Positions 46,198 through 64,000 are shown, counted from the first letter of the stretch. The stretch: 64,000 nucleotides of DNA from Candidatus Heimdallarchaeota archaeon (GCA_016840095.1 JAEOSZ010000024.1:44958-108957); one strand, 5' to 3'. Notes: a model not told the origin generated them from the letters alone. Program-made: numbers and translations.

Positions 46198-46209
46198 TTT
46201 ATATCCTCT

Positions 46210-46677: not shown

Positions 46678-46685
46678 TTTAATCA

Positions 46686-47159
46686 CTAGAGTTCTCTACG
46701 CTTTTTCCGTTCCTTTCTGATAAAATCAGTAATTTCATCAAGATTAGGAACAGTTGACATTTCATAAACCTTCATAAAAACTATTTCCTTGTTTTTACCA
46801 ACAAGAATATTAGCTCTTTTTGAAACCCCTTTATCATCTTGGAAAACACCTAGAGTACTAGAAAGTTCGCCATGAGGCCAGAAGTCAGCTAATAGTTGAG
46901 TTTCTTTGATTCCTAATTCTTCAGCCCATGCTTTTTTTGTAGGATCAGAATCAACACTTACTCCAACAGCAATTACATCTAATTCATCAAATTCAGATTT
47001 TGCATTTTCTAATGATTGCATTTGTTTTGCACACACTCCAGTCCAAGCTAGAGGGTGAAAAGAAAGTAAAACCATCTTATCTTTGATATCGTAGAGTTCG
47101 AATTCTTCACGATTTTGATCTTTCAGAGTAAAATTAGGTACAGTATCACCTATTTTCAT
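46686..47159 (-). CDS. Peroxiredoxin, AhpE-like 1-Cys
   Basis: FHPLAWTGVC, SVDS, LLADFWPHG, RA; only one Cys; ATG 47159. Confidence 0.88.
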   Translation of the reverse strand: MKIGDTVPNFTLKDQNREEFELYDIKDKMVLLSFHPLAWTGVCAKQMQSLENAKSEFDELDVIAVGVSVDSDPTKKAWAEELGIKETQLLADFWPHGELSSTLGVFQDDKGVSKRANILVGKNKEIVFMKVYEMSTVPNLDEITDFIRKERKKRREL

Positions 47160-47350
47160 TGTTATCACAAATTAAAGTAGTTGAAATAAATTTTTAAAGA
47201 CTAGTTTTGTGCAAGAAAATAAATTTTCAGAAATCTAAATAGTAGAAGAGATATGTAATTGTCTAGAAAAGATTTTTGAAGTAGAAACAACTATAGTTGA
47301 GACATAATAAGATTTAAATTCTTTTAGGATAAAATGAGGTAGAATCCCCA

Positions 47351-47911
47351 ATGCCATCTGAACTAGGAAGAATATTTAAAGTGGTACTAATCGGTGACGG
47401 AGCTGTTGGAAAAACTAGTCTTCGAAGAAACTATCTTGGAAAAAGTTTTAGAGAAAATTATTTAATGACCATAGGAGCAGATTTCAGCGTGAAACAGGTT
47501 CCCTATGAGGATTATGTAGTAAGTCTCCAGATTTGGGATTTAGCAGGACAACCTAGGTTTTCAGAAGTAAGAGGAGCATATTATGCTAACACTTATGGTG
47601 CTCTGGTAGTTTTTGATGTAACCAGACCTAATACATTTACCAATATTGATTTTTGGATAAATGAGATGATTAAATACAATGATAATAAGCTCATTCCAAT
47701 GCTTATCATAGGAAATAAAATTGACTTAAGAGGAGAACTTCCAGATGAGGTTCAAGTAGATAAAACTTCAGCAATGACCTATGCTCAGATTTTATCTGAA
47801 TGGGGAGGAATAAAAGTTGAATATATCGAAACCTCTGCTAAAACAGGGCAGAATGTTGGTTCTGCATTTGAAAGGCTGATTGACAGGATATACTTCCAAA
47901 TGGGATTATAA
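47351..47911 (+). CDS. Rab-like small GTPase (Ras superfamily)
   Basis: GDGAVGKT, MTIGADF, LQIWDLAGQ, YY..T.GALVVFDVT, GNKID, ETSAK; no C-terminal Cys. Confidence 0.93.
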   Translation: MPSELGRIFKVVLIGDGAVGKTSLRRNYLGKSFRENYLMTIGADFSVKQVPYEDYVVSLQIWDLAGQPRFSEVRGAYYANTYGALVVFDVTRPNTFTNIDFWINEMIKYNDNKLIPMLIIGNKIDLRGELPDEVQVDKTSAMTYAQILSEWGGIKVEYIETSAKTGQNVGSAFERLIDRIYFQMGL

Positions 47912-48225: not shown

Positions 48226-51036
48226 CTAGAGACAAACACTAGGATCAAAGTCTGGAACATATCTAGTAGGTTGTATTTTATTGACTATGAATTTACGAAG
48301 TTCTTCAACAGCAGCTATTGGTAACATTGTGAGTAGAATGATCCCCCAGTGTATTCCAGATAGTGGGAAAGTTTTGATTGCAGGTTGTAAGAAAGGAATG
48401 TAAATTGCTGCCATTAATAGAATAACTCCTAAAGCAATTGCACCAAAGAGGGATTTGTTCTGGAAGATTCTTCTAGAAAAGATTGTTCGACCTCTACTAG
48501 TTGAAAGAGAGTTGGCTAATTGATAAATTACTAATGAAGCAAAGACCATAGTTTGACCAATCTTGATGTTCTCTTCAGTAATAGCTGAACCAAACCCTAT
48601 GGCCCAATAGAAAACAAACATTGAACCAATAGCATAGAGAACACCAGTTATAGCTATCTTGATTAACATAACCTTGTCAAGAAGAGGTTCGTTAGGATCT
48701 CTTGGAGGACGTTGCATGACATTTTCTTCAGGAGCGCTAAGACCTAAAGCTAGTGCAGGAAAAGCATCTGTAACGATATTAATGAAGAGCAATTGAATAG
48801 CTAGAACTGGGAGAACGATGTTATCTAAAACAATAGCACCAATGATTAAACCAAAGAGAACTGTAAGGATTTCTCCAGCATTAGCAGAGAGTAAGTAAGC
48901 AATGAATTTTTTCATGTTATCATAAATTAATCTACCTTCAGAAACAGCATCAATAATATTAGCAAAATTATCATCAACAAGTATCATGTCACTAGCTTCT
49001 TTAGCAACGTCAGTACCAGCAATACCCATAGCAACACCAATGTCAGAGCGTTTAAGAGCAGGTGCATCATTCACACCATCGCCAGTCATAATTACTACTT
49101 CTCCATTCCTTTTTAGAGCATTTACTATTCTAAGCTTATGAGCTGGATTGACTCTAGCAAATATTTCTGTTTCATCAACAGCTTCGTAGAGTTTTTCATC
49201 TGACATCTCATCTAATTCTCTGCCTGATATTGGTTCAGTATCCTTACACAGAGTAATAGAACGACCAATTGCTCTAGCTGTAGTCATATGATCTCCAGTT
49301 ATCATTGTAACTTTGATTCCAGCTTGCCTTGCTCTATCAATTGATGGTTTGGACTGATCTCTTGGTGGATCAATCATTGATACGAACCCAACGAAAGTTA
49401 GATTTTTTTCAGCATCTTCTTGGAAACCAGAGAGAATTAGTTTAGTTGATGTTTCTGAATCGAGGGTTCTCATTGCTAAACCTAAGATTCTATAAGCATA
49501 ATGATCAGAATAAGCATTACTTATATTAAGAATCTCATGCTTTTCCGCTTCTTCTAACGGGTGAATCATCCCATTAACATATTTAGTATCACAAATATCA
49601 AGTAATACATCAGTTGCTCCCTTAACTAAGAGTTGGTCTTGTCCAGTTTTTTTGTTAGTAACAATAACACTCATTCTTTTTCTTTCACTGTCAAATGGGA
49701 AAAGGTATTGTCGAGACCAATCTTCTTCTATTTCTTGTTTTAAGCCGCTTTTCTCAGCTAATACAAGCAAAGAAACCTCAGTAGGGTCACCAAAAATTTC
49801 AAAGTTCAAATCATCATCTTTAACAGTGATATTAGCTTCATTGGCCAATGTACAAATCTCCAAAGATTTCAGAAGAGAAGCATCGTTTCTAGCATTTGCA
49901 TGTTCAGCAGATTCAGAATAATGAATATTACCCTCACCAGAATACCCAGTTCCAGTGACATTATAGACGTTTTCTAAAGTCCAGACATTTTTTGCTGTCA
50001 TTTCATTTTTGGTTAATGTTCCAGTTTTATCACTACAAATGATTGTAGCAGAACCAAGAACTTCTACAGCTGGCAATTTTCGTATGAGAGATCTTTTACG
50101 AGCCATTCTAGTGACTCCAATAGCCATTGTTAATGTAAGTACAACAGGTAATCCTTCTGGTACAGCTGCAACAGCTAAACCTATTGCAAAAATAATTGTT
50201 TCTGATATTGTAGTATCTTTCATTAAGAATATACCTATTAACAGAATAATTACAGATAGAACTGCTATCCCTATAGTTAGTTGTTTTGCTAATTTAGCAA
50301 GTTTCTTTTGAATAGGAGTATCATCTTGTTCAATTTCCATCAACGACGATGCTATTTTACCTAATTCTGTACCTAATCCAGTTGCAACAACTATACCTAT
50401 ACCAGAACCGTTAACTACTGTAGTTCCTTTATAGAGCATATTTATCCTATCAGCAAGAGGTGTTTTTTCTGGAAGAACATTTGTTTGTTTCTTAATTGGT
50501 AAAGATTCACCTGTAAGTATTCCCTCAATGGTTCTTACTTCATAACTCTCAACTAAGCGTATATCAGCTGCAATTGTACTACCAGCTTCAAGAGCTACAA
50601 TATCTCCTGGAACAAGTAGTTCAGATTTGATTAGTTTCTTCTTCTTGTCTCTAACTACAATAACTTCACTTACAGCTAGACTCTTCAAAGAGTTGATAGC
50701 TTTTTCTGCAGATAATTCTTGATAAAATCCTAAACCAGCATTTATAGCTACTACAACAAAAATAGCTACGATTTCAACTATAGATTCTTTGTCCTTCTCA
50801 ACAATACCTATTATACCAGTAATTAATCCAGAAACTAGTAAGATGATGACTAAAAGGTCTGTAAATTGATTTAAAAGAATTTTCCAAGGACTTACTGCTC
50901 TCCCAGATGGGATAACATTTTCACCATGTTCCAGTAATTTCTCCTCTGCTTCTTTTGTTGATAAACCTTCAAATCGAGAATCGAGTTCTTCGTAAAGTTG
51001 TTCAGCTGTCTTATTGTGTCCTTCCATTAAACTCAA
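48226..51036 (-). CDS. P-type ATPase, type IIA (SERCA-like, probable Ca2+ pump)
   Basis: TGES, VPEGLP, CSDKTGTLT, KGA, MIDPPR, MITGD, TGDGVNDAPALK; M5 LSANAGE, M6 INIVTD. ATG 51027 is the likely start. Confidence 0.93.
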   Translation of the reverse strand: MSLMEGHNKTAEQLYEELDSRFEGLSTKEAEEKLLEHGENVIPSGRAVSPWKILLNQFTDLLVIILLVSGLITGIIGIVEKDKESIVEIVAIFVVVAINAGLGFYQELSAEKAINSLKSLAVSEVIVVRDKKKKLIKSELLVPGDIVALEAGSTIAADIRLVESYEVRTIEGILTGESLPIKKQTNVLPEKTPLADRINMLYKGTTVVNGSGIGIVVATGLGTELGKIASSLMEIEQDDTPIQKKLAKLAKQLTIGIAVLSVIILLIGIFLMKDTTISETIIFAIGLAVAAVPEGLPVVLTLTMAIGVTRMARKRSLIRKLPAVEVLGSATIICSDKTGTLTKNEMTAKNVWTLENVYNVTGTGYSGEGNIHYSESAEHANARNDASLLKSLEICTLANEANITVKDDDLNFEIFGDPTEVSLLVLAEKSGLKQEIEEDWSRQYLFPFDSERKRMSVIVTNKKTGQDQLLVKGATDVLLDICDTKYVNGMIHPLEEAEKHEILNISNAYSDHYAYRILGLAMRTLDSETSTKLILSGFQEDAEKNLTFVGFVSMIDPPRDQSKPSIDRARQAGIKVTMITGDHMTTARAIGRSITLCKDTEPISGRELDEMSDEKLYEAVDETEIFARVNPAHKLRIVNALKRNGEVVIMTGDGVNDAPALKRSDIGVAMGIAGTDVAKEASDMILVDDNFANIIDAVSEGRLIYDNMKKFIAYLLSANAGEILTVLFGLIIGAIVLDNIVLPVLAIQLLFINIVTDAFPALALGLSAPEENVMQRPPRDPNEPLLDKVMLIKIAITGVLYAIGSMFVFYWAIGFGSAITEENIKIGQTMVFASLVIYQLANSLSTSRGRTIFSRRIFQNKSLFGAIALGVILLMAAIYIPFLQPAIKTFPLSGIHWGIILLTMLPIAAVEELRKFIVNKIQPTRYVPDFDPSVCL

Positions 51037-51115: not shown

Positions 51116-52069
51116 TCATGAATTCTTTACTTTTACAATCTCTGCAGCAATACTAATAGCAATTTCTTCAGGAGTATCACTTTTAATCCTCATACCAATT
51201 GGAGAATATACTTTTTCAAGAAGTTCAGTAGAAACGCCTTTTTGTTCTAGGTTTGCAAACAATTGTACTCTCTTAGCGGGGCTAGCCATCATACCCAAGT
51301 ATTTTAGTTTTTTATTGATAATCTTTTCTAGAACCATCTCATCAGATTTATGTCCAAAAGTCATGATTGCAACATAGATATTGTTTCCTTCAGGAATATA
51401 TTCCTCTACATCGTTAAAGGAAATTACTTCTTTTCTATTAGCATATATGTTAGCAATCATAGTAGGAAGATCTTCTCTATCATCAAGAACTGTAATATGA
51501 TAATCGAGTGTTTCCATGATTTTTGAAAGGGCAAGAGATACATGCCCACCACCACAAATAAAGAGTCTATTTTGCATTCCAATGTTTTGTTGATAAATCC
51601 AATAAGTATCATCTTCTGTATACACAATATTATCTTCTTGAAATCTGTTCGTTTCAACACTTAATTCCTCGTTACTAATACTAAGGATTCCAGGAATTGC
51701 TTCTGAATATGCTTTGATTATTTGTTTAATTGAATTCTTATTTTCTATGGTTAATGGAACTAATGCAAACTTCTGTGACCCAGAACATATCATACCAGAA
51801 CTAAATTCAGTTGCAGAATCATCATGAACAAGATGCAATCTTTCAATAGTATTTATTCTTTGATCTAACATCTCCTTTGCTAGATTAGCTAATTTATGTT
51901 CAGAATTACCTCCTCCAACTGTACCAATAATTGTCTCTGAAGTAACAAGCATCTTTGCTCCAGGAACATTTGGAGCTGAACCTTCTCGATGCATAATTAT
52001 TACAACAACTACAGGAGTTCCAGTTTCAATATCACTAAGAACCTCTTTCCAAAATAGTTCTTCATTCAT
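51116..52069 (-). CDS. xdhC: XdhC/CoxI family molybdenum cofactor insertion chaperone
   Basis: GSAP..GAKM, GTVGGG, GMICSG, GGGHVS, YLGMM, SPIG..SDTPEEIAISIAAEI. Confidence 0.92.
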   Translation of the reverse strand: MNEELFWKEVLSDIETGTPVVVVIIMHREGSAPNVPGAKMLVTSETIIGTVGGGNSEHKLANLAKEMLDQRINTIERLHLVHDDSATEFSSGMICSGSQKFALVPLTIENKNSIKQIIKAYSEAIPGILSISNEELSVETNRFQEDNIVYTEDDTYWIYQQNIGMQNRLFICGGGHVSLALSKIMETLDYHITVLDDREDLPTMIANIYANRKEVISFNDVEEYIPEGNNIYVAIMTFGHKSDEMVLEKIINKKLKYLGMMASPAKRVQLFANLEQKGVSTELLEKVYSPIGMRIKSDTPEEIAISIAAEIVKVKNS

Positions 52070-52080
52070 GCAATAATCTC

Positions 52081-54318
52081 CTAATCATCATATAAAAAGA
52101 ACAAGAGTCTTTCATTAGTCAATGGAGCAACAAAACTCCATTCCTTTTCTTTTCGAAATGCTTTTGCTGCATCTTTCAGTGCAAGATAGGCTCCAATACC
52201 ATACATGAAAGGAGGTTCTCCTATTGCCTTTGATTTCAACACCGCATATGGATTTTCTACATTTTCAAGGAATTTCACTTTTATCTCTGGTGCAAAATGA
52301 ACATCTGGTACTTTATAGGTAGCTAGTGCATCAGAAATCAATTTTCCATTTTCATACATTAGTTCCTCTAAAGTCAACCAACCCATACCTTGAACTAAAC
52401 CACCTTCAGCTTGTCCAAGGTCTATTAGATGATTCAAACTTTTTCCAGCATCATGGGCAATGTGGACTTTGTCAAATTTGTAAGTACCTCTTAAGCAGTC
52501 AACAGTTGCTTCTGTAACAGCTGTTCCAAACACATGATAAGCAAAAGGTTTGCCTTCTTCTTTATCGTGATCATAATAAATTCCTGGAGTTGCATACAAT
52601 GCCTGAGCTGCAAGGTTGACTCTTTTTAGATAAGCTTCGTTAACAAGATCTTCCCAAACCAAATCTGTTTTTTGACCATTTAAGTAGACCACTTCATCTT
52701 CAAAAGTTATTTCTCCTTCACCTACTTTTTCAGTGGCTATTTCGCGTAGTCGTTCAACAATTATCTGACAAGCTATCTCTGTTGCTTTCCCATTCATGTC
52801 AGCTCCACTACTTGCTGAAGTAGGAGATGTATTAATAACTCGACCAGTATTAGTACTTTCGATTCGAACTCGATCAGGTTTGATAGATAAAGCTTGAGCT
52901 GCAATAGATTTGATTTTCATGTTTACCCCCTGTCCCATTTCAACAGCACCTGTACTCACATTCACACTTCCATCATAGTAAATGTTCACTAGAGCTCCAG
53001 CTTGATTCATGAAAGTCGAAGTGAATGAGATACCAAAACACACTGGAGTGATGGAAATTCCTTTCTTAACAAATTTATTTGTCTCATTGAATTCGAATTG
53101 TTTGAGTTTTAATTCCTCATATTTAGAATCTTGAAGAGCTTGTTCGAAGCTTCGTTTTGTTGTTGTATTTTCTACTCTCATTCCATAAGGGAACTGATCT
53201 CTTTCATCAAGCAGATTTTTTTCTTGCAATTCTTTTATTGGGATACCAGAAACATCAGCTGCGTGAGATAAAACACATTCCATGACAAACATTCCTTGAG
53301 GAGCACCAAATCCTCTAAATGCAGTGAAAGGAACAAGATTTGTTCTACATGAATAAGCTGTTACTTTCACATTGGGGATGAAATAAGCATTAGTTACGTG
53401 AAATAAGGTTCTACCAAGAATTGCAGTTGATAAATCTGCTGCTGCTCCTGCATTTTGATAATATTCAGCTTCTAAAGCAAGAATTTTACCTTCTTTATCC
53501 AAACCTAGTTTATAATCAGTTGAATAAGGATGACGTTTTCCGGTTATTATTATATCCTCTTGTCTGTCTAGAACTAGCTTTACAGGTCTTCCAGTATGAT
53601 AAGCTCCTAAAGCACAGATAGCTGACCAATGAGTAGCTTGATCTTCTTTTCCTCCAAAACCTCCACCTAATCTCTTTACATCTACTTCAATTTTGTTCAT
53701 ATCTACTCCTAGTATATTAGCTACAATATTTTGAACTGTAGATGGATTTTGAGTTCCAGAGTAAATAAGAAAATCTCCATCTTCTTTTGGAATAACTAAA
53801 GACGCTTGGGTTTCCATGTAGATGTGCTCTTGACCACCAGATTCAACAACACCCTCAACAATTGTTTCACATCTCTCCCAGATACTATCAACATTCCCAA
53901 GAGATATTGTTCGTGAAGGAGCAATTAAAGATCCATTTTTTGCAGCCTCTCTAGCATCAAAAACTGCTGGAAGAGGTTCGTATTCTATTGATATTAGTTC
54001 TCTAGCATTGTTTGCATCTTTCTTAGTTTCTGCAAACACAACAGCTATAGGATGACCAATGAAATCAACTTTATGTTCAGCAAGGAGTTCTTCATCCTGA
54101 ATAATTCTACCAACTTGATTTTCACCAGGGATATCCTCAAATGTAATAACTTTCACCACTCCCTCACTTTCTTTAGCCTTTTCTAAATTAAGTCTTATGA
54201 TTTTCCCATGAGGAATACTGGAAACGAAAACAGCTGTATGTAGCATGTTTTTAGGTTCAGGAATATCATCAACAAATACTGATTCACCTGTAGTATGTGG
54301 AGGTATTAAGTCATTCAA
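52081..54318 (-). CDS. xdhB: Xanthine dehydrogenase molybdopterin-binding subunit
   Basis: GQEHIYME, RLGGGFGGKE, AFRGFGAPQ, EMGQG, TSASSGADMNG, SKAIGEPP. Confidence 0.93.
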   Translation of the reverse strand: MNDLIPPHTTGESVFVDDIPEPKNMLHTAVFVSSIPHGKIIRLNLEKAKESEGVVKVITFEDIPGENQVGRIIQDEELLAEHKVDFIGHPIAVVFAETKKDANNARELISIEYEPLPAVFDAREAAKNGSLIAPSRTISLGNVDSIWERCETIVEGVVESGGQEHIYMETQASLVIPKEDGDFLIYSGTQNPSTVQNIVANILGVDMNKIEVDVKRLGGGFGGKEDQATHWSAICALGAYHTGRPVKLVLDRQEDIIITGKRHPYSTDYKLGLDKEGKILALEAEYYQNAGAAADLSTAILGRTLFHVTNAYFIPNVKVTAYSCRTNLVPFTAFRGFGAPQGMFVMECVLSHAADVSGIPIKELQEKNLLDERDQFPYGMRVENTTTKRSFEQALQDSKYEELKLKQFEFNETNKFVKKGISITPVCFGISFTSTFMNQAGALVNIYYDGSVNVSTGAVEMGQGVNMKIKSIAAQALSIKPDRVRIESTNTGRVINTSPTSASSGADMNGKATEIACQIIVERLREIATEKVGEGEITFEDEVVYLNGQKTDLVWEDLVNEAYLKRVNLAAQALYATPGIYYDHDKEEGKPFAYHVFGTAVTEATVDCLRGTYKFDKVHIAHDAGKSLNHLIDLGQAEGGLVQGMGWLTLEELMYENGKLISDALATYKVPDVHFAPEIKVKFLENVENPYAVLKSKAIGEPPFMYGIGAYLALKDAAKAFRKEKEWSFVAPLTNERLLFFLYDD

Positions 54319-55673
54319 AAAGACACCTCCAGTTCTGGAAACAGTTTCACAAAATGAGCATAAATTAACTGACGAAGGAGTAAAGTTTTGTATTTTGCTG
54401 TTCCTCTAACATCATCTATAGGACTGATTTCTGTTCCAGCTATACGAGCAGCTTCTTTGATTACTTCAACAGAAGGTTCCTTATTATTGAGATATTCTGA
54501 AGCTTTAGAAAAATACTTGGGAATTGGTCCAATTCCACCTCCAGAGAGATGAGATTCTTTAATATGATTAAGTTCAATTCTACAAGAAAATGCACTATTA
54601 ACGCTAGCTATATCCATATGCATTCTCTTTGCTACTTTTTCAAAAGAGAGAAGTCTTTTCTTCTTTTTTATTCTAAACCATTCTAAAATTTCCCCTTCCT
54701 CCAAATCTAAAACTTTGTAACCCTTAAAGAAATCCTTCAATTTGATCAATCTTCTATTTTCTCCTAGAAGCAAACTTATGTCAGCATCCAATGCTAGAAA
54801 ATAAATTGTAAGATCACCTATTGGTGAAGCATTAACTACATTTCCACCAATTGTTGCTTGTTGACGAATAGGAAGAGAGGATACCCTAATCAAATGATTA
54901 GCTGTATCAAAAAGAGCATTCAAATCTTCTGAAGTACGAATAGATTCGATATCAGCAGCTGCACCAACATAAATGTATTCTTCATCAGACCATATTTTGT
55001 CATAACCGAGTTCAGAAAGGAAAACAGGATCATCAACAAATTTTCTATGAACAAACAAATCAGTTCCTCCAGCTACAAAAATTCCTTTCTTTAGTTGAGG
55101 TTGAATTTGAATTTCCTTTAACTTGTCTTCAATCTGTAAGAAATACGTAGGGAGATAATTTGCTTCAACTAAAGCCTGGATTCTTTCTTTAGTACTATCT
55201 AAAGATAGAACTTTGTTGTTAACCTTTTCAGCTGCACGAAGTATTGAGTTATACCCAGTGCATCTACAAATATTGCCTTCAATTGCAGTTACGATATCAG
55301 TGTTCTTTAAGTCTGCATTCATGAAATAAGCCATTAATGCTACAATAAAGCCGGGTGTACAATAACCACACTGTGAAGCACCTTCATCTACGAAAGCTTG
55401 TTGAACAGGATTAAGTTCATCTAGATTCAATCCTTCTATCGTTACAACATGTTTGCCTTCAACTTTTCCCAATGGTAATATGCAGGAGTTGATAGCTCTG
55501 TATCTTACTTTATCATCAGTAAGTTCTCCAATCAAAACCATACATGCTCCACAATCCCCTTCATGACATCCTTCCTTTACTCCTTTGAAACCTTTCTTTC
55601 TTAGGAAATCTAAAGTATGAAAGCTAGGAGACGCGTCAGTCTCCATTATTTCTCTGTTGAGTATGAATTTCAT
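54315..55673 (-). CDS. xdhA: Xanthine dehydrogenase small subunit (2x[2Fe-2S] plus FAD domain)
   Basis: KEGCHEGDCGAC..SC, QCGYCTPG..GNICRCTGY, AGGTD, ATIGGN..NASPIGD, PIDDVRG. Confidence 0.93.
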   Translation of the reverse strand: MKFILNREIMETDASPSFHTLDFLRKKGFKGVKEGCHEGDCGACMVLIGELTDDKVRYRAINSCILPLGKVEGKHVVTIEGLNLDELNPVQQAFVDEGASQCGYCTPGFIVALMAYFMNADLKNTDIVTAIEGNICRCTGYNSILRAAEKVNNKVLSLDSTKERIQALVEANYLPTYFLQIEDKLKEIQIQPQLKKGIFVAGGTDLFVHRKFVDDPVFLSELGYDKIWSDEEYIYVGAAADIESIRTSEDLNALFDTANHLIRVSSLPIRQQATIGGNVVNASPIGDLTIYFLALDADISLLLGENRRLIKLKDFFKGYKVLDLEEGEILEWFRIKKKKRLLSFEKVAKRMHMDIASVNSAFSCRIELNHIKESHLSGGGIGPIPKYFSKASEYLNNKEPSVEVIKEAARIAGTEISPIDDVRGTAKYKTLLLRQLIYAHFVKLFPELEVSF

Positions 55674-56881
55674 TATTCAAACCTTTCAATAACTTCTTCA
55701 GCTGTGAATGTTGTTTTACTAATTGCCCCTTCTAATGCTTTGACATCTTTAAGGCCATTTCCAGTAATAACTAGACACACTTTGTCTGTTTTAGTTATTT
55801 TTCCCTCGTAAATAAGTTTTTTCAGCCCTCCGTAAGGAACAGCACCAGCAGGTTCTGCAAAGATTCCGGTCTTTCCTAATTCCTTGATTGCATCAAGAAT
55901 TTCAGCATCATTAAGAGAAATGAAATATCCACCACTTGCTTCAACATAAGTACAAGCTTTAATGACATCTCTAGGTTTCCCTACAGAAATACTATCAGCT
56001 AATGTAGCTCCTGAGATTGATATTGGTTTGTATGGTTTTCCCTTTTCAAATGCTTCCTTAATTGCAGGAATACCTTCAGCTTGAACTCCAATAATTTTTG
56101 GTATTTTATCAGTTAGTCCTATTTCCTTAAACTCCCAAAAACCTTTGTAAAGAGAACTAACAACAGTACCATCTCCTACACCTATGAAGACATAATCAGG
56201 AACCTCAAAGTTGTTCTGGATTACTATTTCAAAAGCTCCTGTTTTCTTTCCTTCTAGAAGATAAGGATTAATTGCAGCATGTCTACAATACCAACCTTTC
56301 TCAAGACCTAAATCTAGAGAGAGATCATAAACTTCATCGTAAGTTCCTTCAACTGCATATACTTCTGCACCAGAAATTTCTAATTGAGCTCTTTTACCAG
56401 CTGGTATAGCTGCGGGAACAAAAATGTATGTTTTCATGGGAGTATGAGCATTAAGCATAGCTAAAGATGAAGCAGCATTACCAGTTGATGCACAAAAAAG
56501 GATTTCATTACCTTCATCTATTGCTTTGTTAATAGCAATAGAACTAGCACGATCTTTATAGGAACTAGAAGGATTAGAACCATCATATTTTACGAGTACA
56601 TCTTTCAAACCGAGAAGATCAAATTTGTACAATGGTGTGCCACCAACATATTCATCCAACTTCAATTTTGATTCTGTTGGCAGCAAAAAATCAAATTGAT
56701 ACATAGAAGCTTTGTTATAGAATAGTCTCTCTTTGATAGAAGCATCTGCTTTAAGAGATTCATAATCATAAATAACTTCTAATGTACCCATAATTTTTCC
56801 ACAATCTTCACAATAGTAAAGACCGGGTTTTGGTTCAAATTCCTTTTTGCAGGTTATACACCTTAAGATATAAGTTGTCAT
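55673..56881 (-). CDS. Threonine-synthase-like fold-type II PLP enzyme with N-terminal zinc ribbon
   Basis: CITC..CEDC, NPSSSYKDR, ASTGNAA, EGKKT, GVGDG, EPAGA, TGNGLKD. ATG 56881 forms an ATGA overlap with the upstream stop. Confidence 0.85.
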   Translation of the reverse strand: MTTYILRCITCKKEFEPKPGLYYCEDCGKIMGTLEVIYDYESLKADASIKERLFYNKASMYQFDFLLPTESKLKLDEYVGGTPLYKFDLLGLKDVLVKYDGSNPSSSYKDRASSIAINKAIDEGNEILFCASTGNAASSLAMLNAHTPMKTYIFVPAAIPAGKRAQLEISGAEVYAVEGTYDEVYDLSLDLGLEKGWYCRHAAINPYLLEGKKTGAFEIVIQNNFEVPDYVFIGVGDGTVVSSLYKGFWEFKEIGLTDKIPKIIGVQAEGIPAIKEAFEKGKPYKPISISGATLADSISVGKPRDVIKACTYVEASGGYFISLNDAEILDAIKELGKTGIFAEPAGAVPYGGLKKLIYEGKITKTDKVCLVITGNGLKDVKALEGAISKTTFTAEEVIERFE

Positions 56882-57957
56882 CTTAACACTCCATAAATTG
56901 CATCTACAGGACAACGAGACTCACACAATCCACAATGTATACATTTCTCTTTGTCTACTACAATGTGATCTTCAGCAGCTGAAAGTGCTACAGCTGGACA
57001 GATTTTTACACAAATCATACACATAGTACATTTTTCATTAAAGGATGGGTGATTATCAACAGCTGTATCAACCTCTTTGAAAATTGTAGTTTTTCTAGTT
57101 TGTCTGATTTCTTCAATAGATGAAAAACCATATTTTTCAAGTGCTTTTGGAAGATCCTTAACAATTTTATCATAAAGACCTCTTCCTTTAATCAAAGCAG
57201 AAGAAAGCATTTGTACCAAGTCTGCTCCAGCAAGGATGAACTCAAGAACATCTTCAGCTTTTGCGATACCACCAACTCCAATAATGGGAATGTCTGGAAA
57301 AGCTTTTCTAATGTTGTAAATCCGATGGAGTGCAACTGGTTTTATTGGTGGACCACTCATCCAGATTTGTTCTGCTAATAAAACTGATCTTGCCTTAAGA
57401 TCTATAGCTGTTCCTGGACCGAGTGAGTTTATAGCAACTATTCCTGTTGCCCCTGAATCAATTACTGTTTTTACAAAACCAACGAAATCAACAATGTGAG
57501 GACTAAGTTTCATAAAAATAGGTTTATCTGTATTTGCTCTTATACTCTTGACTATTCCTGGAAGCAAATCTTCTGAAACATAATGAGTTGAAATTTCAAA
57601 CATATCTGCAAAAGGATCAAGTTTTGGAATCAGATATCCGAAATCTTCTTCTTTGTACCCAGCACTGATAACGATTGGTTTTTTCTTCTCTTTGTGGATC
57701 ACAGGAAGGATATCCTTTATCCAAACATCTGAGTGGTGTTCAGACCATAACTCACAATTATAGATTACATTTGTTGTTCCTGCTATGCAAGGTTTAGGTA
57801 CAACTGCACCTTCAACAGATATAGTTTTAGCAACATTGTAACCACATGAATTATTGTTGAAAAATTGCATGTTTTCTAGACCCTCAACAATTGGTCCTGC
57901 TGCGGGTCCAAGAGGGTTGTTAAATTTTAAACCTAGAATTTTAACTGATAAGTCCAT
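56878..57957 (-). CDS. Dihydroorotate/dihydropyrimidine dehydrogenase (PreA)-like FMN barrel with C-terminal 2x[4Fe-4S] domain
   Basis: AAGP, AKTIS, KLSP, AINS, SGPPIKP, IGVGGI, GADLVQ; CTMCMICVKICP and CIHCGLCESRCP. Confidence 0.85.
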   Translation of the reverse strand: MDLSVKILGLKFNNPLGPAAGPIVEGLENMQFFNNNSCGYNVAKTISVEGAVVPKPCIAGTTNVIYNCELWSEHHSDVWIKDILPVIHKEKKKPIVISAGYKEEDFGYLIPKLDPFADMFEISTHYVSEDLLPGIVKSIRANTDKPIFMKLSPHIVDFVGFVKTVIDSGATGIVAINSLGPGTAIDLKARSVLLAEQIWMSGPPIKPVALHRIYNIRKAFPDIPIIGVGGIAKAEDVLEFILAGADLVQMLSSALIKGRGLYDKIVKDLPKALEKYGFSSIEEIRQTRKTTIFKEVDTAVDNHPSFNEKCTMCMICVKICPAVALSAAEDHIVVDKEKCIHCGLCESRCPVDAIYGVLR

Positions 57958-59274
57958 TTAAGCATCTCCTAATCTTTCCCAAACTGCTTGAGAAGCTATT
58001 TGAGCGTTCTTATATAATGTTTCCTCATTAAAGATACTCTTGTAGTTCTCTATGAGAGTTTTTCCTTTAACTATTACACAAGAAGGTCTGAAGTTTTCGA
58101 ATAGTCCAAAGAAAACATGACCAAAAGCGTTAGTTTTATCCATATTAGTAGGATTGATATAAGGAATAAGTACAAAATCGGCAACATAGCCATTTTTGAT
58201 TTTACCAATCTTAATACCCATTCGACGTCCGAAATATTCATATGAATCGTTGATGTATTTTAGTAGTTCATCAAAACCTATTCCTGCTGCATCTTTAATT
58301 CCGGCTTTACCAGCAAAGAAGAAGTATGTCCATTCTTTTGCAATATTTGTCCCTAAACCATCATTCCCAATAAGAATCTGAATATTATTTTTTCTAAAAA
58401 GATCGATATTGAAAGCTCCAACTGCATTGTTCATGTTTGATGTAGGATTAAGGGCGATCACTGCTTTATTTTGATTGATGAATTTAGCTTCATCTTCATC
58501 AATATGGACACAATGAGCAAGTATAGAATCTTTGTTGAGCATTCCAAATTTTAGGTATCGGTTGACTACTCTCGAATTGTATTTCTCGAGTGAGTCAAAT
58601 TCGTCTTCAATACTTTCTGCAACATGAACATGGATAGGTGCTCCAGCTAGAACTCTTGATACTTTATCGAGTGTTTCCTCTGAAAGACTCATTGAAGCAT
58701 GCAATCCAAACATTCCTTTAGCATCAAAAGCATCATACTTCAGTCCTGCTAAGTTTTCTTCAATACATTCATCTACATTGAACCGATCACTTGTTTCGAA
58801 GCAGAATATCCCTCTCATTCCAAGCTTATCAACAATTGCGCTCTTAAGTGCATCAAGACTACCAATGATATCAATACCACTAGCATGATGATCAATCAAA
58901 GAAGTTACTCCACTTTTCAATGATTCTAAACCATAAACCATAGCACTATGGAAAGTAGCAGTATTATCTAATTTGCTATCAAACTTCCACCAAAGCTGTT
59001 CTAAAATGTCTTTGAAGCTTTTAGGACTAAAAGGAATAGCTGCACCTCTAACAAGAGTTGAATAAATGTGAGTATGGAAGTTAATTAAACCTGGAAGAAG
59101 AATTTTACCTTTTCCATCAATGATTTCACCATCAAATTTTGGAAATTTCTCCATACTTCCAACTTCAATGATCTCCTTACCATAAATACAAAAACCATTT
59201 TCAAAATAGGTCTCATAATCATAGATTTTAACGTTGATTATAGCCTTCATGATTTTACTATTACCTTCTTTCAT
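57958..59274 (-). CDS. ssnA: SsnA-like metal-dependent amidohydrolase
   Basis: PGLINFHTHIYS, ILEQLWWKFD, GVTSLIDHHAS, CFETSDR, GLHAS, HVHVAES, AHCVH, GNDG. ATG 59250 is an alternative start. Confidence 0.85.
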   Translation of the reverse strand: MKEGNSKIMKAIINVKIYDYETYFENGFCIYGKEIIEVGSMEKFPKFDGEIIDGKGKILLPGLINFHTHIYSTLVRGAAIPFSPKSFKDILEQLWWKFDSKLDNTATFHSAMVYGLESLKSGVTSLIDHHASGIDIIGSLDALKSAIVDKLGMRGIFCFETSDRFNVDECIEENLAGLKYDAFDAKGMFGLHASMSLSEETLDKVSRVLAGAPIHVHVAESIEDEFDSLEKYNSRVVNRYLKFGMLNKDSILAHCVHIDEDEAKFINQNKAVIALNPTSNMNNAVGAFNIDLFRKNNIQILIGNDGLGTNIAKEWTYFFFAGKAGIKDAAGIGFDELLKYINDSYEYFGRRMGIKIGKIKNGYVADFVLIPYINPTNMDKTNAFGHVFFGLFENFRPSCVIVKGKTLIENYKSIFNEETLYKNAQIASQAVWERLGDA

Positions 59275-59422
59275 AAGAATTTTTTCTTTTCATGTAAATA
59301 AGAGAGAAATAATTGATTTTATAGAAATTTCAGAAAAAAGGGAAAATACTTTTCATTTAGATGCTGTAAGATAATTATCATATGAAAAATTAAATTCTCA
59401 ATTTATTTGAGAGGTTAGAAAA

Positions 59423-61168
59423 ATGAAAAAAAGTAATAATAAACAGATTATAGTTTTAAGTATTCTAATTTTAGGTTTTTTAATAAGTGCTTCTTCATGG
59501 AATACTTATAATTCAAAAGCTATTGTTAATGAAATAATAAATCAAAATGAAATAGAATTATACAATCCTTTAGCTTGGAATTGGAATTTGACAGAAGTAA
59601 TATCAACAGATAGTATTAGTCAATCAGGAACTCCTTCTATTGGAGCAGATCTTGAAGGGAATATCCACATAGTTTGGGGGGATGCATATAATTATAGTGA
59701 CTCTGGCTCTGATTGGGATATATGCTATAAACGTTGGAACTCTTCCACTTCTTCATGGACAGCTATAGAAGTTATTTCTCCTGAAAGCACAGAACAGTCT
59801 ATTTTTACTTCTTTAGATGTGGATATAGCTGGAAATGTACATGTAGTTTGGCGGGATGCTACTGATTATGCAAGTGCTGGAACTGATCAAGATATATTTT
59901 ACAAACGATGGGATGCTTCTACTAGCACATGGGGTGCTCTAGAGGTTGTTTCAACAGAGAGTACCCAAAATTCTGGTAGCCCATCTATAGATGCAGATAA
60001 TAAAGGAAATATTCATGTTGTATGGAGTGACAGTACTGATTATGCAAGTGCTGGAACAGACATAGATATATTTTACAAAAGATGGGATATTATAACTTCC
60101 TCATGGACAACAACAGAGGTTGTATCTACAGAAAGCACATCTCTATCAGACGATTCTTCAGTAACAACAGATGCTTTTGGAAACATTCATGTGGTTTGGA
60201 TTGATTTCACTAATTATGATGGTTCTGGAACAGACACAGATATATTTTATAAACGATGGGATGCTTCTATCTCCTCATGGACAACAACAGAGGTTGTGTC
60301 AACTGAGAGTACAGATTTTTCTTTTTCCCCCTCTATCACAGTGGATTCATCTTATTTTATCCATATAGCCTGGCAGGATGAAACCGATTATGCAAATGCT
60401 GGAACAGATAGAGATATCTTCTATAAACAATGGAATTCCGCTACTTCCTCATGGACTACAACGGGTGTCATTTCTACAGAAAGCACAGGTGATTCTTACG
60501 TACCTAAAATAGCGATAGATTCTCAGAATAATTTGCATATTGTTTGGTATGATTACACTAACATTGTGGATTCAGGTTCAGATGAAGACATTTTTTACAG
60601 ACGCTTGAATGCTAAAAGTCAAACTTGGTCTCCTCTAGAAGTTGTTTCTACAGAAAGTACGAGTGGTTCAATGGGATCATCTATGATTGTTGATTCTGCA
60701 GATCAAATCCTAACGGTTTGGGTTGACTCCACTGATTATGAAGAAGCAGAGACAGATCAAGATATTTTCTTCAAAAGAACTTTAGATTTTCCTGATGCAC
60801 CTGAACTTGCTTTTATTGTCCCTAATCCTACTGAAACTTCTATTGTTTCAATTGACTGGAATAATATCTCAAGAGCAAATAGCTACTTCATCTACCGATC
60901 TGATTATTACATCTGGTCAGTAGAAGAACTCACTCCTATTGATGAAGTAAGCAATAGTTACTATGCTGATACCTTACCTACTGAAGGTTTCTTTTACTAT
61001 GTAATTGTTGCAAGCAATTATGTAGGAAATAGTTCTCATTCAAACTGTCAATATGTTGAATACAGACTCCCTCATGTCAGAGAGTTCACAATAATTTCTA
61101 GTTTAATCATCGGAGCTATGGTAATATCCTTAGTAGTGATGAAAACTCGAAGAAACAAAATATCATGA
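59423..61168 (+). CDS. Surface protein with seven 58-aa repeats (probable beta-propeller), FN3-like domain and C-terminal anchor, copy 1
   Basis: Signal peptide; 7 x W...EV(V/I)STES..S..PSI..D..GN(I/V)H(I/V)VW.D.T(D/N)Y...G.D.DIFYKRW; PELAFIVPNP..YYVIVA; LPHVREF plus TM plus KTRRNK. Confidence 0.88.
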   Translation: MKKSNNKQIIVLSILILGFLISASSWNTYNSKAIVNEIINQNEIELYNPLAWNWNLTEVISTDSISQSGTPSIGADLEGNIHIVWGDAYNYSDSGSDWDICYKRWNSSTSSWTAIEVISPESTEQSIFTSLDVDIAGNVHVVWRDATDYASAGTDQDIFYKRWDASTSTWGALEVVSTESTQNSGSPSIDADNKGNIHVVWSDSTDYASAGTDIDIFYKRWDIITSSWTTTEVVSTESTSLSDDSSVTTDAFGNIHVVWIDFTNYDGSGTDTDIFYKRWDASISSWTTTEVVSTESTDFSFSPSITVDSSYFIHIAWQDETDYANAGTDRDIFYKQWNSATSSWTTTGVISTESTGDSYVPKIAIDSQNNLHIVWYDYTNIVDSGSDEDIFYRRLNAKSQTWSPLEVVSTESTSGSMGSSMIVDSADQILTVWVDSTDYEEAETDQDIFFKRTLDFPDAPELAFIVPNPTETSIVSIDWNNISRANSYFIYRSDYYIWSVEELTPIDEVSNSYYADTLPTEGFFYYVIVASNYVGNSSHSNCQYVEYRLPHVREFTIISSLIIGAMVISLVVMKTRRNKIS

Positions 61169-61306: not shown

Positions 61307-63052
61307 ATGAATTGCAAAATCAAAAAATTTTATGTTAGCTTGAGTAGTCTGATGATTTGTTTTTTAGTAAGTGGTTTAATTTTCAATACTCTAAGCTCAG
61401 AAGCTCTATCAGAAAAGGAAAATAATCGATACAATACTAACAATTTTGATAGATCTATTCCGAAATGGAATTCAACAGAGGTTGTTTCCACAGAAAGTAT
61501 AAGTACTTCTCACGTTCCTTCTCTTGCAATCGATTCTGCAGGGAATGTACATATAGCGTGGTGTGATAATACTAATTACGCTGGAGCGGGGAGTGATTGG
61601 GATATCTTCTATAAACAATGGGATACTTCTACTTCCTCATGGTCAACCACAGAAATTGTTTCTACAGAGAGTATAACGCATTCTTACTACCCATCTCTTG
61701 CAGTCGATTCAGTTGGGAATGTTTATGTAGTGTGGGGAGATGAAACCGATTATGCTGGAGCGGGAAGCGATCGGGATATATTCTATAAACGATGGAATGC
61801 TACCTCATCTTCGTGGACAACTACAGAAGTGGTTTCCACAGAAAGTACAGGTTATTCTCACGATTCTTCTATTGATGTAGATTCTGTAGGGAATGTACAT
61901 ATAGCCTGGGAAGATTGGACTGACTATGCTGGAGCTGGTACAGATAATGATATTTTCTATAAACGATGGAATGCTACCTCATCTTCGTGGACAACTACAG
62001 AAGTGGTTTCTACAGAAAGTACAACACATTCTTACTACCCATCTCTTGCAGTCGATTCAGTTGGGAATGTTTATGTAGTGTGGGGAGATGACACCAATTA
62101 TGCTGGAGCGGGAAGTGATCGGGATATCTTCTATAAACGATGGGATACTTCCACTTCCTCATGGACAACTACAGAAGTGGTTTCCACAGAAAGTACAGGT
62201 TATTCTCACGATTCTTCTATTGATGTAGATTCTGTAGGGAATGTCTATATAGCATGGGAAGATGTGACTAATTATGCTGGAGCTGGTAATGATGAAGATA
62301 TTTTCTACAAAAGTTGGGACGTTTTTTCTTCCGCATGGACCTCAACAGAAGTAGTTTCTACAGAAAGTACAGGTAATTCCAATGTGCCTTCTCTTGCAGT
62401 CGATTCTGTAGGGAATATCCACATATCATGGGGTGATAATACTGATTATGCTGGAGAGGGTGCAGATGAAGACATTTTCTACAAAAGTTGGGACGTTTTT
62501 TCTTCCGCATGGACCTCAACAGAAGTAGTTTCCACAGGAACCACAGGGAATTCTCACGATTCTTCTCTTGCAGTCGATTCTGTAGGGAATGTCTATATAG
62601 CATGGTGTGATAATACTGATTACGCTGGAGCGGGGAGTGATTGGGATATCTTCTATAAGTTTTCCAATATTTTTCCTATAGCACCTGAACTAGCTTTTAT
62701 AGTTCCCAATCCTACAGATGTAAATACTATTTTTCTCGATTGGAATAATATTACTTCAGCTACAAGTTACTTTGTTTATCGTAACACATATTACATCTGG
62801 TCAGCGGATGAACTAGTTCCAATTGCTGAAGTTACTACTAGTTTTTATGTTGATACTCTACCAGCAGAAGGTTATTTCTACTATGTTATTGTTGCCACTA
62901 ACTTTGTTGGAAACAGGTCTCAATCTAATTGTCAATATGTTGAATACAAACTCCCTCATGTAAGAGAATTCACATTAATTACTGGATTAATACTTGGAGT
63001 AATAGTAGTCTCAATAGTTATTCTGAGAACAAGAAGAACTAAACTAAAATGA
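61307..63052 (+). CDS. Surface protein with seven 58-aa repeats (probable beta-propeller), FN3-like domain and C-terminal anchor, copy 2
   Basis: Same architecture and length (581 aa) as copy 1, with more homogeneous repeats. Confidence 0.88.
   Translation: MNCKIKKFYVSLSSLMICFLVSGLIFNTLSSEALSEKENNRYNTNNFDRSIPKWNSTEVVSTESISTSHVPSLAIDSAGNVHIAWCDNTNYAGAGSDWDIFYKQWDTSTSSWSTTEIVSTESITHSYYPSLAVDSVGNVYVVWGDETDYAGAGSDRDIFYKRWNATSSSWTTTEVVSTESTGYSHDSSIDVDSVGNVHIAWEDWTDYAGAGTDNDIFYKRWNATSSSWTTTEVVSTESTTHSYYPSLAVDSVGNVYVVWGDDTNYAGAGSDRDIFYKRWDTSTSSWTTTEVVSTESTGYSHDSSIDVDSVGNVYIAWEDVTNYAGAGNDEDIFYKSWDVFSSAWTSTEVVSTESTGNSNVPSLAVDSVGNIHISWGDNTDYAGEGADEDIFYKSWDVFSSAWTSTEVVSTGTTGNSHDSSLAVDSVGNVYIAWCDNTDYAGAGSDWDIFYKFSNIFPIAPELAFIVPNPTDVNTIFLDWNNITSATSYFVYRNTYYIWSADELVPIAEVTTSFYVDTLPAEGYFYYVIVATNFVGNRSQSNCQYVEYKLPHVREFTLITGLILGVIVVSIVILRTRRTKLK
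61466..62658 (+). repeat. Intragenic 174-bp tandem repeat, 7 units, with identical segments between non-adjacent units
   Basis: Identical blocks 61679-61743/62027-62091, 61814-61896/62162-62244, 61781-61836/61955-62010, 62300-62358/62474-62532. Confidence 0.9.
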
Positions 63053-63186: not shown

Positions 63187-64000
63187 ATGAAAAAAAATGC
63201 AAAAAAAATTTCATTAATTGTCAGTTTTACAGTTAGTTTTTTGATTATTACTTCTTCACCTAATGTACTAAATTCTAGTGCATTCTTGGGAGAAAGTAAG
63301 ACTCAATTTACCTTAGATTCTTATGACAAATCTAGTTGGGCTTGGGGAATAACTGAAGTAGTTTCAACTGAAAGCGATGGTCACTCAAATAGTGCTTCAA
63401 TGTTTGTTGATTCTGAAGGTGATATACATGTGACTTGGCACGATCAATCTGAGATTCTTGGAGCAGCGAATGATTCAGACATTTTTTATAAGAGATGGGA
63501 TGCTTCAAAAACCACTTGGACAACAACTGAACTTATCTCAACAGAGAGTACTGATCACTCCAATGATCCAACAATTTTTGTTGATACTTCTCTTAACATC
63601 CACATTGTGTGGGAGGATAGTACAAATTATGATTCATCAGGTGACGACTATGATATATTCTATCGATTTAAGAGTGCTCTTGATACCTCATGGTCAGCAA
63701 TAAAGGTTGTATCTAATGATAGTACTCTGTACTCATACAATCCTGTTATTGCAGTTGATTCAAAAGGTGATTCACATATAGCATGGTACGATGCAACGGA
63801 CTATAATGGAGCTGGAATAGATCAGGATATCTTCTATAAGAAATATGATAGAACTAATGATACTTGGTCTCAAACACAGGTAGTTTCGGATGTTAGTGAT
63901 GCACATTCTCAACATCCATCTATTACCATTGATCTAGATGACAATGTACATTTCGCATGGGCTGACCAGTCTACATATGCTGCTTCAGGGACTGACTGGG
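63187..64000 (+). CDS. Third 58-aa repeat surface protein, 3'-truncated by the window edge (missing from ORF track)
   Basis: AAGGTGA then ATG 63187: MKKNAKKISLIVSF..WGITEVVSTESDGHSNSASMFVDSEGDIHVTWHDQSEILGAANDSDIFYKRWD..; frame stays open to base 64000. Confidence 0.88.
   Translation, partial: MKKNAKKISLIVSFTVSFLIITSSPNVLNSSAFLGESKTQFTLDSYDKSSWAWGITEVVSTESDGHSNSASMFVDSEGDIHVTWHDQSEILGAANDSDIFYKRWDASKTTWTTTELISTESTDHSNDPTIFVDTSLNIHIVWEDSTNYDSSGDDYDIFYRFKSALDTSWSAIKVVSNDSTLYSYNPVIAVDSKGDSHIAWYDATDYNGAGIDQDIFYKKYDRTNDTWSQTQVVSDVSDAHSQHPSITIDLDDNVHFAWADQSTYAASGTDW

Follow-up and report, generated by a model that had tools for sequence, protein, structure and literature searches.

A six-gene operon of a Heimdallarchaeaceae archaeon proposed to act in reductive purine degradation, with a threonine-synthase-like enzyme as candidate substitute for DpaL

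A six-gene operon with xanthine dehydrogenase genes

The stretch of DNA considered here (the window) comprises 64,000 nucleotides from a Candidatus Heimdallarchaeota archaeon (GCA_016840095.1, JAEOSZ010000024.1:44958-108957), and six minus-strand open reading frames (ORFs) occupy its positions 51116-59274. A first-pass annotation had described them as tightly coupled genes for an SsnA-like amidohydrolase, a flavo-iron-sulfur barrel protein, a threonine-synthase-like enzyme and the proteins XdhA, XdhB and XdhC, and had seen in them an archaeal version of the anaerobic purine-degradation pathway with two replaced enzymes. The positions, the common strand and each junction were confirmed, as was the lack of hyuA, ygeW and ygeY in the window. 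Homology and gene context suggest that the operon probably encodes the terminal lyase of the reductive urate (2,8-dioxopurine) pathway together with its upper module, and that the ancestor of the Heimdallarchaeaceae obtained it from Bacillota in a single transfer, with fusion to a canonical xanthine dehydrogenase. The features are, in the direction of transcription:

59275..59422, no strand: divergent intergenic region 5' of ssnA, 148 bp, AT-rich, presumed operon promoter (sequence reading)
57958..59274, minus: ssnA-like amidohydrolase of a variant SsnA subgroup, 438 aa (NF005540 349 bits, TIGR03314 321 bits)
56878..57957, minus: UacX-type reductase, 359 aa (PF01180 135 bits, Fer4 motifs)
55673..56881, minus: ThrC-like enzyme dependent on pyridoxal phosphate (PLP), here called ThrCL, 402 aa, with an N-terminal 4-Cys zinc ribbon (PALP 208 bits)
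54315..55673, minus: xdhA, fused [2Fe-2S] and FAD subunit of xanthine dehydrogenase, 452 aa (Fer2_2, FAD_binding_5, CO_deh_flav_C; TIGR02963 326 bits)
52081..54318, minus: xdhB, molybdopterin subunit of xanthine dehydrogenase, 745 aa, TTG start (TIGR02965 807 bits)
51116..52069, minus: xdhC, XdhC-family Mo-cofactor insertion chaperone, 317 aa (XdhC_C and XdhC_CoxI domains)

The stop codon TAA of ssnA directly abuts the ATG of the reductase gene (gap 0), which in turn overlaps the thrC-like gene at ATGA. The latter starts at the ATG at 56881, a longer TTG frame from 56914 not being the true start, and shares 1 nt with xdhA at TAATG. The xdhA/xdhB junction is a TTGA overlap in which xdhB begins with TTG at 54318, the adjacent ATG being out of frame, and an 11-bp gap containing GGAG precedes the ATG of xdhC. 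A TCTATAAAATC stretch on the minus strand, ~45 nt before the ssnA ATG, may be a TATA box. A scan for sigma-70 promoters and terminators 5' of ssnA gave no more matches than shuffled sequence, with bacterial-type models that are unsuited to an archaeon. The G+C content of the operon (0.35-0.36) is only slightly above that of the window.

The genome bin is 89% complete with 7.8% contamination. The contig is regarded as archaeal and not as a contaminant of the bin, because its close homologues are annotated as Heimdallarchaeaceae or Heimdallarchaeota, a Ras-family small GTPase is encoded 3 kb away (47351-47911, plus strand), and an operon of the same make-up is present in Ca. Heimdallarchaeum endolithica, whose chromosome is complete (L037).

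NF005540 is by far the top family of the SsnA-like protein (the next scores 132 bits), yet the match stays below the cut-off of 444 bits. This variant subgroup, scoring 290-376 bits, is also present in Clostridia, and in the neighbourhoods inspected (G004/L038, G291/L116, G440/L118, G239/L119) it adjoins UacX, the reductase type discussed below. The archaeal gene likewise abuts its ring reductase gene, and its product is proposed to open the reduced 2,8-dioxopurine ring by hydrolysis.

XdhB missed its family cut-off narrowly (807 against 849.5 bits) and XdhA also scored below its own (326 against 467 bits). In the alignment of XdhB with human xanthine oxidoreductase (XOR; 582 bits), GGFGGKE, FRGFG, FGISFT and GEPP are all matched, and the Arg of (M/L)xR(A/T)LFH is kept (MERALFH in the human enzyme, LGRTLFH here). 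We take these motifs to supply the catalytic Glu, Arg and Glu and the substrate-binding Phe; with the catalytic and substrate motifs of XOR conserved, XdhB should make urate. XdhAB is of the Rhodobacter/eukaryote type, with an iron-sulfur/FAD subunit and a molybdenum subunit.

The UacX-type reductase and the threonine-synthase-like enzyme

The product of the second gene consists of a DHO_dh barrel (residues 3-273) followed by two CxxCxxCxxxCP motifs within residues 309-355, and lacks any FAD or NAD(P)H domain. It falls below the cut-offs for dihydroorotate dehydrogenase (DHODH; 166 against 269 bits) and PreA (NF006183; 123 against 335 bits). Comparison with DHODH-1B structures upheld the earlier remark that EISTHY replaces the N.SCP-type catalytic loop: the DHODH-1B loop "ELNISCPNVKHGG..." is ~12 residues longer than its counterpart here. 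FE[ILV]STHY and the shortened loop are invariant in 41 homologues adjoining SsnA and/or ThrCL. No PreT- or PyrK-like gene lies adjacent to the barrel gene, also as first noted, and no YgfK was found in the genome, where the best match covers part of the protein at 26% identity.

According to Li et al., 2025 (PMC12507026), C. difficile has in place of YgfK a FAD-less PF01180 protein with Fe-S clusters, named UacX (Q181U4) and presumed to be fed by ferredoxin ("likely relying on Fdx"), and SsnA neighbourhoods hold either YgfK or UacX. In Clostridia clusters that have kept DpaL (L118; L119, Clostridium sp. SHJSY1), UacX has FEISTHY and is 49%-55% identical to the protein of the window. The archaeal barrel is assigned to the UacX type and is proposed to stand in for YgfK as a ferredoxin-fed 2,8-dioxopurine reductase. 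The first-pass annotation was right to suggest this replacement, which coincides with the UacX concept of PMC12507026 and is therefore already published and not new here. A third reductase arrangement is seen in an uncultured bacterium (CAZSXU010000002.1, L105), where a PydA/PreA-like barrel with an S-C-P loop lies beside a YgfK-like gene, in a cluster that also holds SsnA, two genes resembling ornithine transcarbamylase (OTC), carbamate kinase and ThrCL.

The unusual loop of UacX, unlike that of every characterised relative, raises the question of whether the operon acts on another N-heterocycle (another oxopurine, a pteridine or a pyrimidine-like compound), UacX and SsnA having a substrate different from that of YgfK and SsnA. 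SsnA, XdhA, XdhB and the OTC-like and HyuA-like proteins encoded elsewhere in the genome all score under curated equivalog cut-offs, which also speaks for this explanation. It is nevertheless improbable, since UacX and SsnA of the same subgroups are found in Clostridia beside genuine YgeY, YgeW, carbamate kinase and DpaL (L118), XdhB retains the xanthine-binding residues, and the bacterial clusters are flanked by adenine and guanine deaminases.

ThrCL retains the PLP lysine, the STGN loop and the N-terminal 4-Cys ribbon. Its score exceeds the cut-off of TIGR00260 (thrC; 186 against 167 bits) and falls below that of NF006050 (207 against 303 bits). The protein shares 54% identity with a bacterial copy from a purine cluster and 27% with the bona fide ThrC of its own genome, which is encoded on contig C11 (NF006050, 561 bits). 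In 82 of 84 ThrCL sequences, Leu takes the place of the Arg of the NPYRxEG motif, which is kept in two solved ThrC structures, in the ThrC encoded on C11 and in two of the three further Asgard ThrC proteins inspected (the third yielded no motif); the loop that binds the PLP phosphate reads GDG in all ThrCL (GNAG or GGG in ThrC). We take this Arg to be a ligand of the phosphate of O-phosphohomoserine. Neither DpaL model (TIGR03528/TIGR01747) is among the best 25 of the 34 families for ThrCL, and the protein is regarded as an analogue of DpaL and not as a member of its family. As the earlier reading had it, no threonine-pathway gene is adjacent.

Public annotations name the two enzymes DHODH and threonine synthase, and the TIGR00260 score of ThrCL agrees with the second of these names. 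The corresponding explanation, that two housekeeping enzymes lie beside xdh by chance, is already contradicted and is given next to no weight: separate PyrD (contig C163; PF01180, 213 bits) and ThrC genes are present, so that neither enzyme is the genome's only pyrD or thrC, the catalytic Cys loop is missing from the barrel, the Arg conserved in ThrC is Leu in ThrCL, and the linkage to purine genes is conserved over about ten phyla.

This linkage was followed by a scan of species-representative genomes, which gave 80 ThrCL loci (79 with a ThrCL ORF) that were annotated against a reference set including the E. coli cluster. Besides Heimdallarchaeota, the loci span about ten bacterial phyla, among them Bacillota, Thermotogota, Bipolaricaulota, Synergistota, Chloroflexota and Elusimicrobiota. 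Directly 5' of ThrCL lies UacX in 38 of the 79 loci and YgfK in 14 (52/79 together); a subunit of the Xdh family follows ThrCL in 47/79, and SsnA is present in 41/79. DpaL occurs in none of the 79. The linkage of ssnA, barrel, thrC-like gene and xdh recurs in eight other Heimdallarchaeaceae loci and in dozens of bacterial ones, and is thus not peculiar to this genome. In YgfK-type clusters of Clostridia (L114, L115), ThrCL and a CysK-like gene are found with ygeW, ygeY and the gene for carbamate kinase, at the position taken by ygeX in E. coli. UacX and ThrCL form an isolated pair in the Thermotogota loci L071, L073 and L089-L093, with no other recognisable purine gene within 10 kb; a CysK-like gene lies elsewhere in the genome for L071, L073, L089, L091 and L093, whose whole genomes were searched.

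No DpaL is encoded anywhere in 47 of 50 ThrCL genomes. Among 399 sampled Clostridia genomes, 34 carry SsnA (20 canonical, 14 of the variant subgroup found in the window), and these 34 divide into 18 with DpaL and 16 with ThrCL, none having both or neither (naive Fisher p 4.5e-10). ThrCL lies on the SsnA contig, 2-9 kb away, in 13 of the 16; in the other three the ThrCL ORF is cut by a contig end, and two of these abut a CysK-like gene. On the SsnA tree, the DpaL/ThrCL label needs at least four changes, all four of them forced by well-supported branches. Complementarity of this kind gives strong support to the earlier idea that the thrC-like enzyme stands in for DpaL, an idea that needs refinement in that the replacement is probably a pair of enzymes, ThrCL and the CysK-like protein. 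ThrC-family enzymes can deaminate by β-elimination (PMC12172450), and ThrCL is proposed to be the terminal β-eliminating lyase, acting on 2,3-diaminopropionate or albizziin in place of DpaL/YgeX. The PLP step is narrowed to these two compounds because they are the only intermediates with the free α-amine that a PLP enzyme needs.

The CysK-like gene is found in 45 of the 50 ThrCL genomes, often adjacent to ThrCL, and in 15/16 ThrCL Clostridia against 2/18 DpaL Clostridia, one of these two copies having an internal stop. The copy of the archaeon lies on contig C119. CysK-family enzymes act via aminoacrylate on β-substituted alanines, and with its PLP lysine and STGN loop intact and its frequent presence beside ThrCL, the CysK-like enzyme might itself be the real substitute for DpaL. 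ThrCL would then be an accessory enzyme that racemises or epimerises D-diaminopropionate or D-albizziin, or that uses a β-replacement to recover the C3 unit in the form of serine or cysteine. The intermediates of the pathway are regarded as D-configured in PMC12507026, which could require a second enzyme beside the lyase. This assignment of roles is possible and rather unlikely. The exclusivity with DpaL is stricter for ThrCL (overlap of 0/18, against 2/18 for the CysK-like gene), and ThrCL is the sole PLP gene of the cluster in several Thermotogota. On account of this stricter exclusivity, ThrCL is preferred as the analogue of DpaL and the CysK-like enzyme as its probable helper.

Remaining pathway genes, proposed flow and origin

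The reductive urate cluster of E. coli comprises xdhD-ygfM, ygfK, ssnA, hyuA, ygeW, yqeA, ygeY and ygeX, and the cluster is also present in C. sporogenes, as described in PMC12507026 and bioRxiv 10.1101/2025.04.24.650524. In the archaeal genome, candidates for the remaining pathway genes other than YgeY were found on contigs C11 and C119, with adenine deaminase on C95. A second purine locus (C11:72000-91999, L010) contains a MocA-like gene, a Mo enzyme of the XdhD/"Se-dependent XDH" type (TIGR03311, 868-870 bits against a cut-off of 830), carbamate kinase (372-402 bits, above cut-off), an OTC/YgeW-like gene directly beside one resembling aspartate carbamoyltransferase (ATCase), and a hydantoinase-like gene. 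The same OTC-like type is present in the bacterial clusters. No DpaL was found: among the nine PALP matches, neither the seven genes outside the window that were scanned against NCBIfam nor ThrCL matched a DpaL family, tblastn with E. coli YgeX against the genome gave no match, and the Heimdall relatives G001-G003 likewise yielded none. In Ca. Heimdallarchaeum endolithica, the Mo enzyme, YgeY, OTC-like, CysK-like and HyuA-like genes, SsnA, UacX, ThrCL and XdhABC form one cluster. The idea of an archaeal version of the pathway holds, candidate lower-pathway genes lying elsewhere in this genome and in a single cluster in its relative.

Every step of the following scheme rests on homology, gene context or chemistry. 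XdhAB, matured by XdhC, would convert hypoxanthine and xanthine to urate, from which the XdhD/DOPDH-type Mo enzyme encoded on C11 would strip the 6-oxo group to give 2,8-dioxopurine. Low-potential electrons would pass through the two [4Fe-4S] clusters of UacX to its flavin mononucleotide (FMN) and reduce the pyrimidine ring, the shortened S-T-H-Y loop substituting for the Cys loop of DHODH and dihydropyrimidine dehydrogenase; hydrolysis of the ring by SsnA may drive this otherwise unfavourable reduction. The hydantoinase-like and OTC-like enzymes and carbamate kinase, all on C11, would open the second ring, with ATP formed from one of the ureido groups. Finally, ThrCL, probably with the CysK-like enzyme, would break down albizziin or 2,3-diaminopropionate to pyruvate and ammonia by β-elimination. 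By this count, oxidation of hypoxanthine to urate would yield four electrons and the two reductive steps would use four. Two oxidations would thus balance two reductions when hypoxanthine is the substrate, and the operon would couple the electron-yielding to the electron-consuming steps.

A different role has been proposed for the Xdh of Heimdallarchaeia (Hodarchaeales and Heimdallarchaeales), which was read as a source of antioxidant urate (bioRxiv 10.1101/2025.02.26.640444). Applied to this operon, the neighbouring genes would be unrelated to the role of Xdh. Besides that published proposal, three tandem AhpC/TSA peroxiredoxin paralogues (155-160 aa; 45730-47168, minus strand) 4 kb downstream of the operon speak for it; a nitroreductase-family gene (45170-45733) follows them. 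The coupling of the genes makes this explanation very unlikely: xdhABC is translationally coupled to ssnA-uacX-thrCL, the gene order is identical in all Heimdallarchaeaceae loci long enough to show it, and the genome also encodes steps that consume urate. Translational coupling of xdhABC to urate-consuming genes is what favours catabolism in the Heimdallarchaeaceae.

The bacterial origin that had been put forward for checking by phylogeny is supported by the gene trees. On the ThrCL and UacX trees, the Heimdall sequences group as a single clade (SH-aLRT 99), nested with support of 100 on both trees inside a Bacillota group; the window's copy, the only Heimdall sequence on the SsnA tree, is likewise nested. 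A Peptostreptococcaceae metagenome-assembled genome (MAG) stands beside the clade, as its sister on the ThrCL and SsnA trees. Each tree is rooted by one long outgroup, and the direction of transfer is read from the nesting. The operon is apparently the product of one old transfer from Clostridia-like Bacillota and not an archaeal invention. In a sample of 301 genomes of the phylum, with orthologues defined by at least 620 bits plus one split copy, ThrCL was found in 23 of 28 other genomes of the family Heimdallarchaeaceae and in 0/15 genomes sampled from other families of the same order. A wider Asgard count (48 of 301 genomes at E<=1e-80) was discarded: its matches of 270-316 bits outside the family are ordinary ThrC, as judged from NP[YF]RLEGQKT in two of three loci inspected and from the lack of purine genes nearby in all three.

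Several observations weigh against the proposed catabolic role and the assignment of enzymes to its steps. DpaL does co-occur with ThrCL in 3 of the 50 genomes. The commonest neighbour of ThrCL is the reductase and not the downstream genes, which is odd for an enzyme of the last step, and the CysK-like enzyme could be the true analogue of DpaL. Of hyuA, ygeW, ygeY and carbamate kinase, for which the first-pass annotation suggested a search, carbamate kinase alone scored above its cut-off. The hydantoinase-like gene on C11 reaches 286 bits, below the HyuA cut-off of 393, and the OTC/YgeW-like gene 257 and 206 bits, again below cut-off; YgeY was not found in this 89%-complete genome, where the best match (C119:24275-25372) has 137 bits against a cut-off of 321. 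Three related Heimdall genomes do encode YgeY (629-634 bits); its gene adjoins that of the Mo enzyme in G003, and the two are 1.4-3.2 kb apart in G001 and G002. A selD above cut-off, yqeB and yqeC were not found in the genome, though the Mo enzyme on C11 passes a "selenium-dependent" model; either the enzyme is not selenium-dependent here, or these genes lie in the missing 11% of the genome. For the reductase, the link to C. difficile UacX Q181U4 is indirect, by way of the Clostridium clusters and a likeness of description: the best 120 homologues of one Clostridium UacX included no C. difficile protein, and an exact look-up of two Clostridium UacX proteins gave no match. The main text of PMC12507026 contains assay methods, and a result for UacX is not among the sections available.

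One of the three genomes with both ThrCL and DpaL is the Bacillota MAG of L039, in which DpaL lies directly beside a CysK-like fragment on a 3-kb contig (G005:C287); this may be a transitional arrangement or a binning artefact.

On balance, the role of the operon as upper module and terminal lyase is considered probable. A broader proposal is put forward more tentatively and is given a little under even chances: that ThrCL and the CysK-like enzyme are a widespread two-enzyme ending of the pathway that has replaced DpaL at least four times, and that Heimdallarchaeaceae ferment purines for ATP, their Xdh being catabolic and not antioxidant.

A SERCA-like P-type ATPase gene (48226-51036, minus strand) adjoins xdhC, and 5' of the purine locus on C11 lie two small GTPases, a cysteine-desulfurase-like gene and a P-type ATPase. 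The presence of small GTPases and a P-type ATPase beside both purine loci looks like coincidence. A recent duplication that split the purine cluster was considered and rejected, the two ATPases being only 35% identical and the relative's cluster having none. Divergent from the operon, on the plus strand, are two tandem 581-aa genes (59423-61168 and 61307-63052) with weak PDIAV-lipoprotein matches, the second also matching SBBP beta-propeller repeats, and a third gene (63187-63999) that has no Pfam match and runs off the end of the window. Two tandem arylsulfotransferase (ASST)-like genes of ~530 aa lie at 40920-42518 and 42606-44189 (plus strand).

Comparison with known systems

The pathway, worked out in 2025, and UacX are already known. 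ThrCL and CysK-like enzymes and archaea are not mentioned in the portions available of the pathway papers, a 2022 preprint and a 2025 commentary, so the replacement of DpaL by ThrCL (with the CysK-like enzyme) and an archaeal instance of any kind are new with respect to that literature. The earlier description of the system as an undescribed archaeal version stands, within the same literature, for the archaeal case and the ThrCL exchange, and not for its UacX half. The published genome-neighbourhood network (PMC12507026) colours any PF00291 protein as YgeX, which would mask the exchange; ThrCL and the CysK-like enzyme would also be overlooked in surveys relying on BLAST identity to YgeX.

In many anaerobes, different enzymes, annotated as "threonine synthase" and "cysteine synthase", appear to carry out the final step of this pathway, which bears on gout and on the gut microbiome. 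For the Heimdallarchaeaceae, which are among the closer archaeal relatives of eukaryotes, the operon suggests an ability to ferment purines with ATP formed via carbamate kinase. A catabolic Xdh would be an alternative to the antioxidant or aerotolerance role used in a recent argument on eukaryogenesis (bioRxiv 10.1101/2025.02.26.640444). The operon would also be a clean example of a multi-gene transfer from Bacillota to an Asgard family, later scattered over several loci.

Taken enzyme by enzyme, the reductase resembles PreA and the C-terminal half of dihydropyrimidine dehydrogenase in having an FMN barrel followed by a 2x[4Fe-4S] domain (NF006183 123 bits), and differs from PreA and class 1B DHODH in having no PreT or PyrK partner and in the replacement of the N-x-S-C-P loop by the shorter E-I-S-T-H-Y. 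ThrCL shares its fold, PLP lysine, STGN loop and 4-Cys ribbon with zinc-ribbon threonine synthase (NF006050; 2ZSJ, 6CGQ, 1UIM), from which it is set apart by Leu for the Arg of NPYRxEG, by GDG for GNAG/GGG and by the lack of threonine-pathway context. With DpaL/YgeX, the 2,3-diaminopropionate ammonia-lyase, it has in common a fold-type II PLP enzyme, the same pathway and a complementary phyletic pattern; unlike DpaL, it does not match TIGR03528, carries a zinc-ribbon N-terminus and usually has a CysK-like companion.

As whole systems, the archaeal genes and the clusters of E. coli and C. sporogenes both place SsnA beside a ring reductase and link it to Mo hydroxylases, and an XdhD-type enzyme, hydantoinase, carbamoyltransferase and carbamate kinase are present in the archaeal genome as well. 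The system described here differs in its archaeal host and in having UacX for YgfK, ThrCL and the CysK-like enzyme for DpaL/YgeX, and XdhABC fused into the operon; its genes are distributed among three contigs, and no YgeY was found in the genome. C. difficile UacX (Q181U4) is, by description, similar to the archaeal reductase: a FAD-less PF01180 barrel that carries Fe-S clusters, is encoded next to SsnA and is presumed to be fed by ferredoxin. C. difficile, however, keeps YgeX and uses UacY, whereas the archaeon has an OTC-like enzyme with carbamate kinase, and ThrCL. Further counterparts are the ThrCL clusters of Bacillota, for example in a Peptostreptococcaceae MAG (JAMOQG010000002.1, L038) and in "delta proteobacterium ML8_F1" (LQBE01000027.1, L002), which show the order SsnA-UacX-ThrCL followed by a Mo hydroxylase. 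Their proteins are 53%-62% identical to the archaeal ones and are the nearest relatives on all three gene trees. In contrast to the archaeal operon, with its XdhABC of eukaryote/Rhodobacter type, these clusters continue after ThrCL with YgfM, FeS and XdhD-type subunits, and in them YgeY and the OTC-like, CysK-like and HyuA-like genes form a single upstream block.

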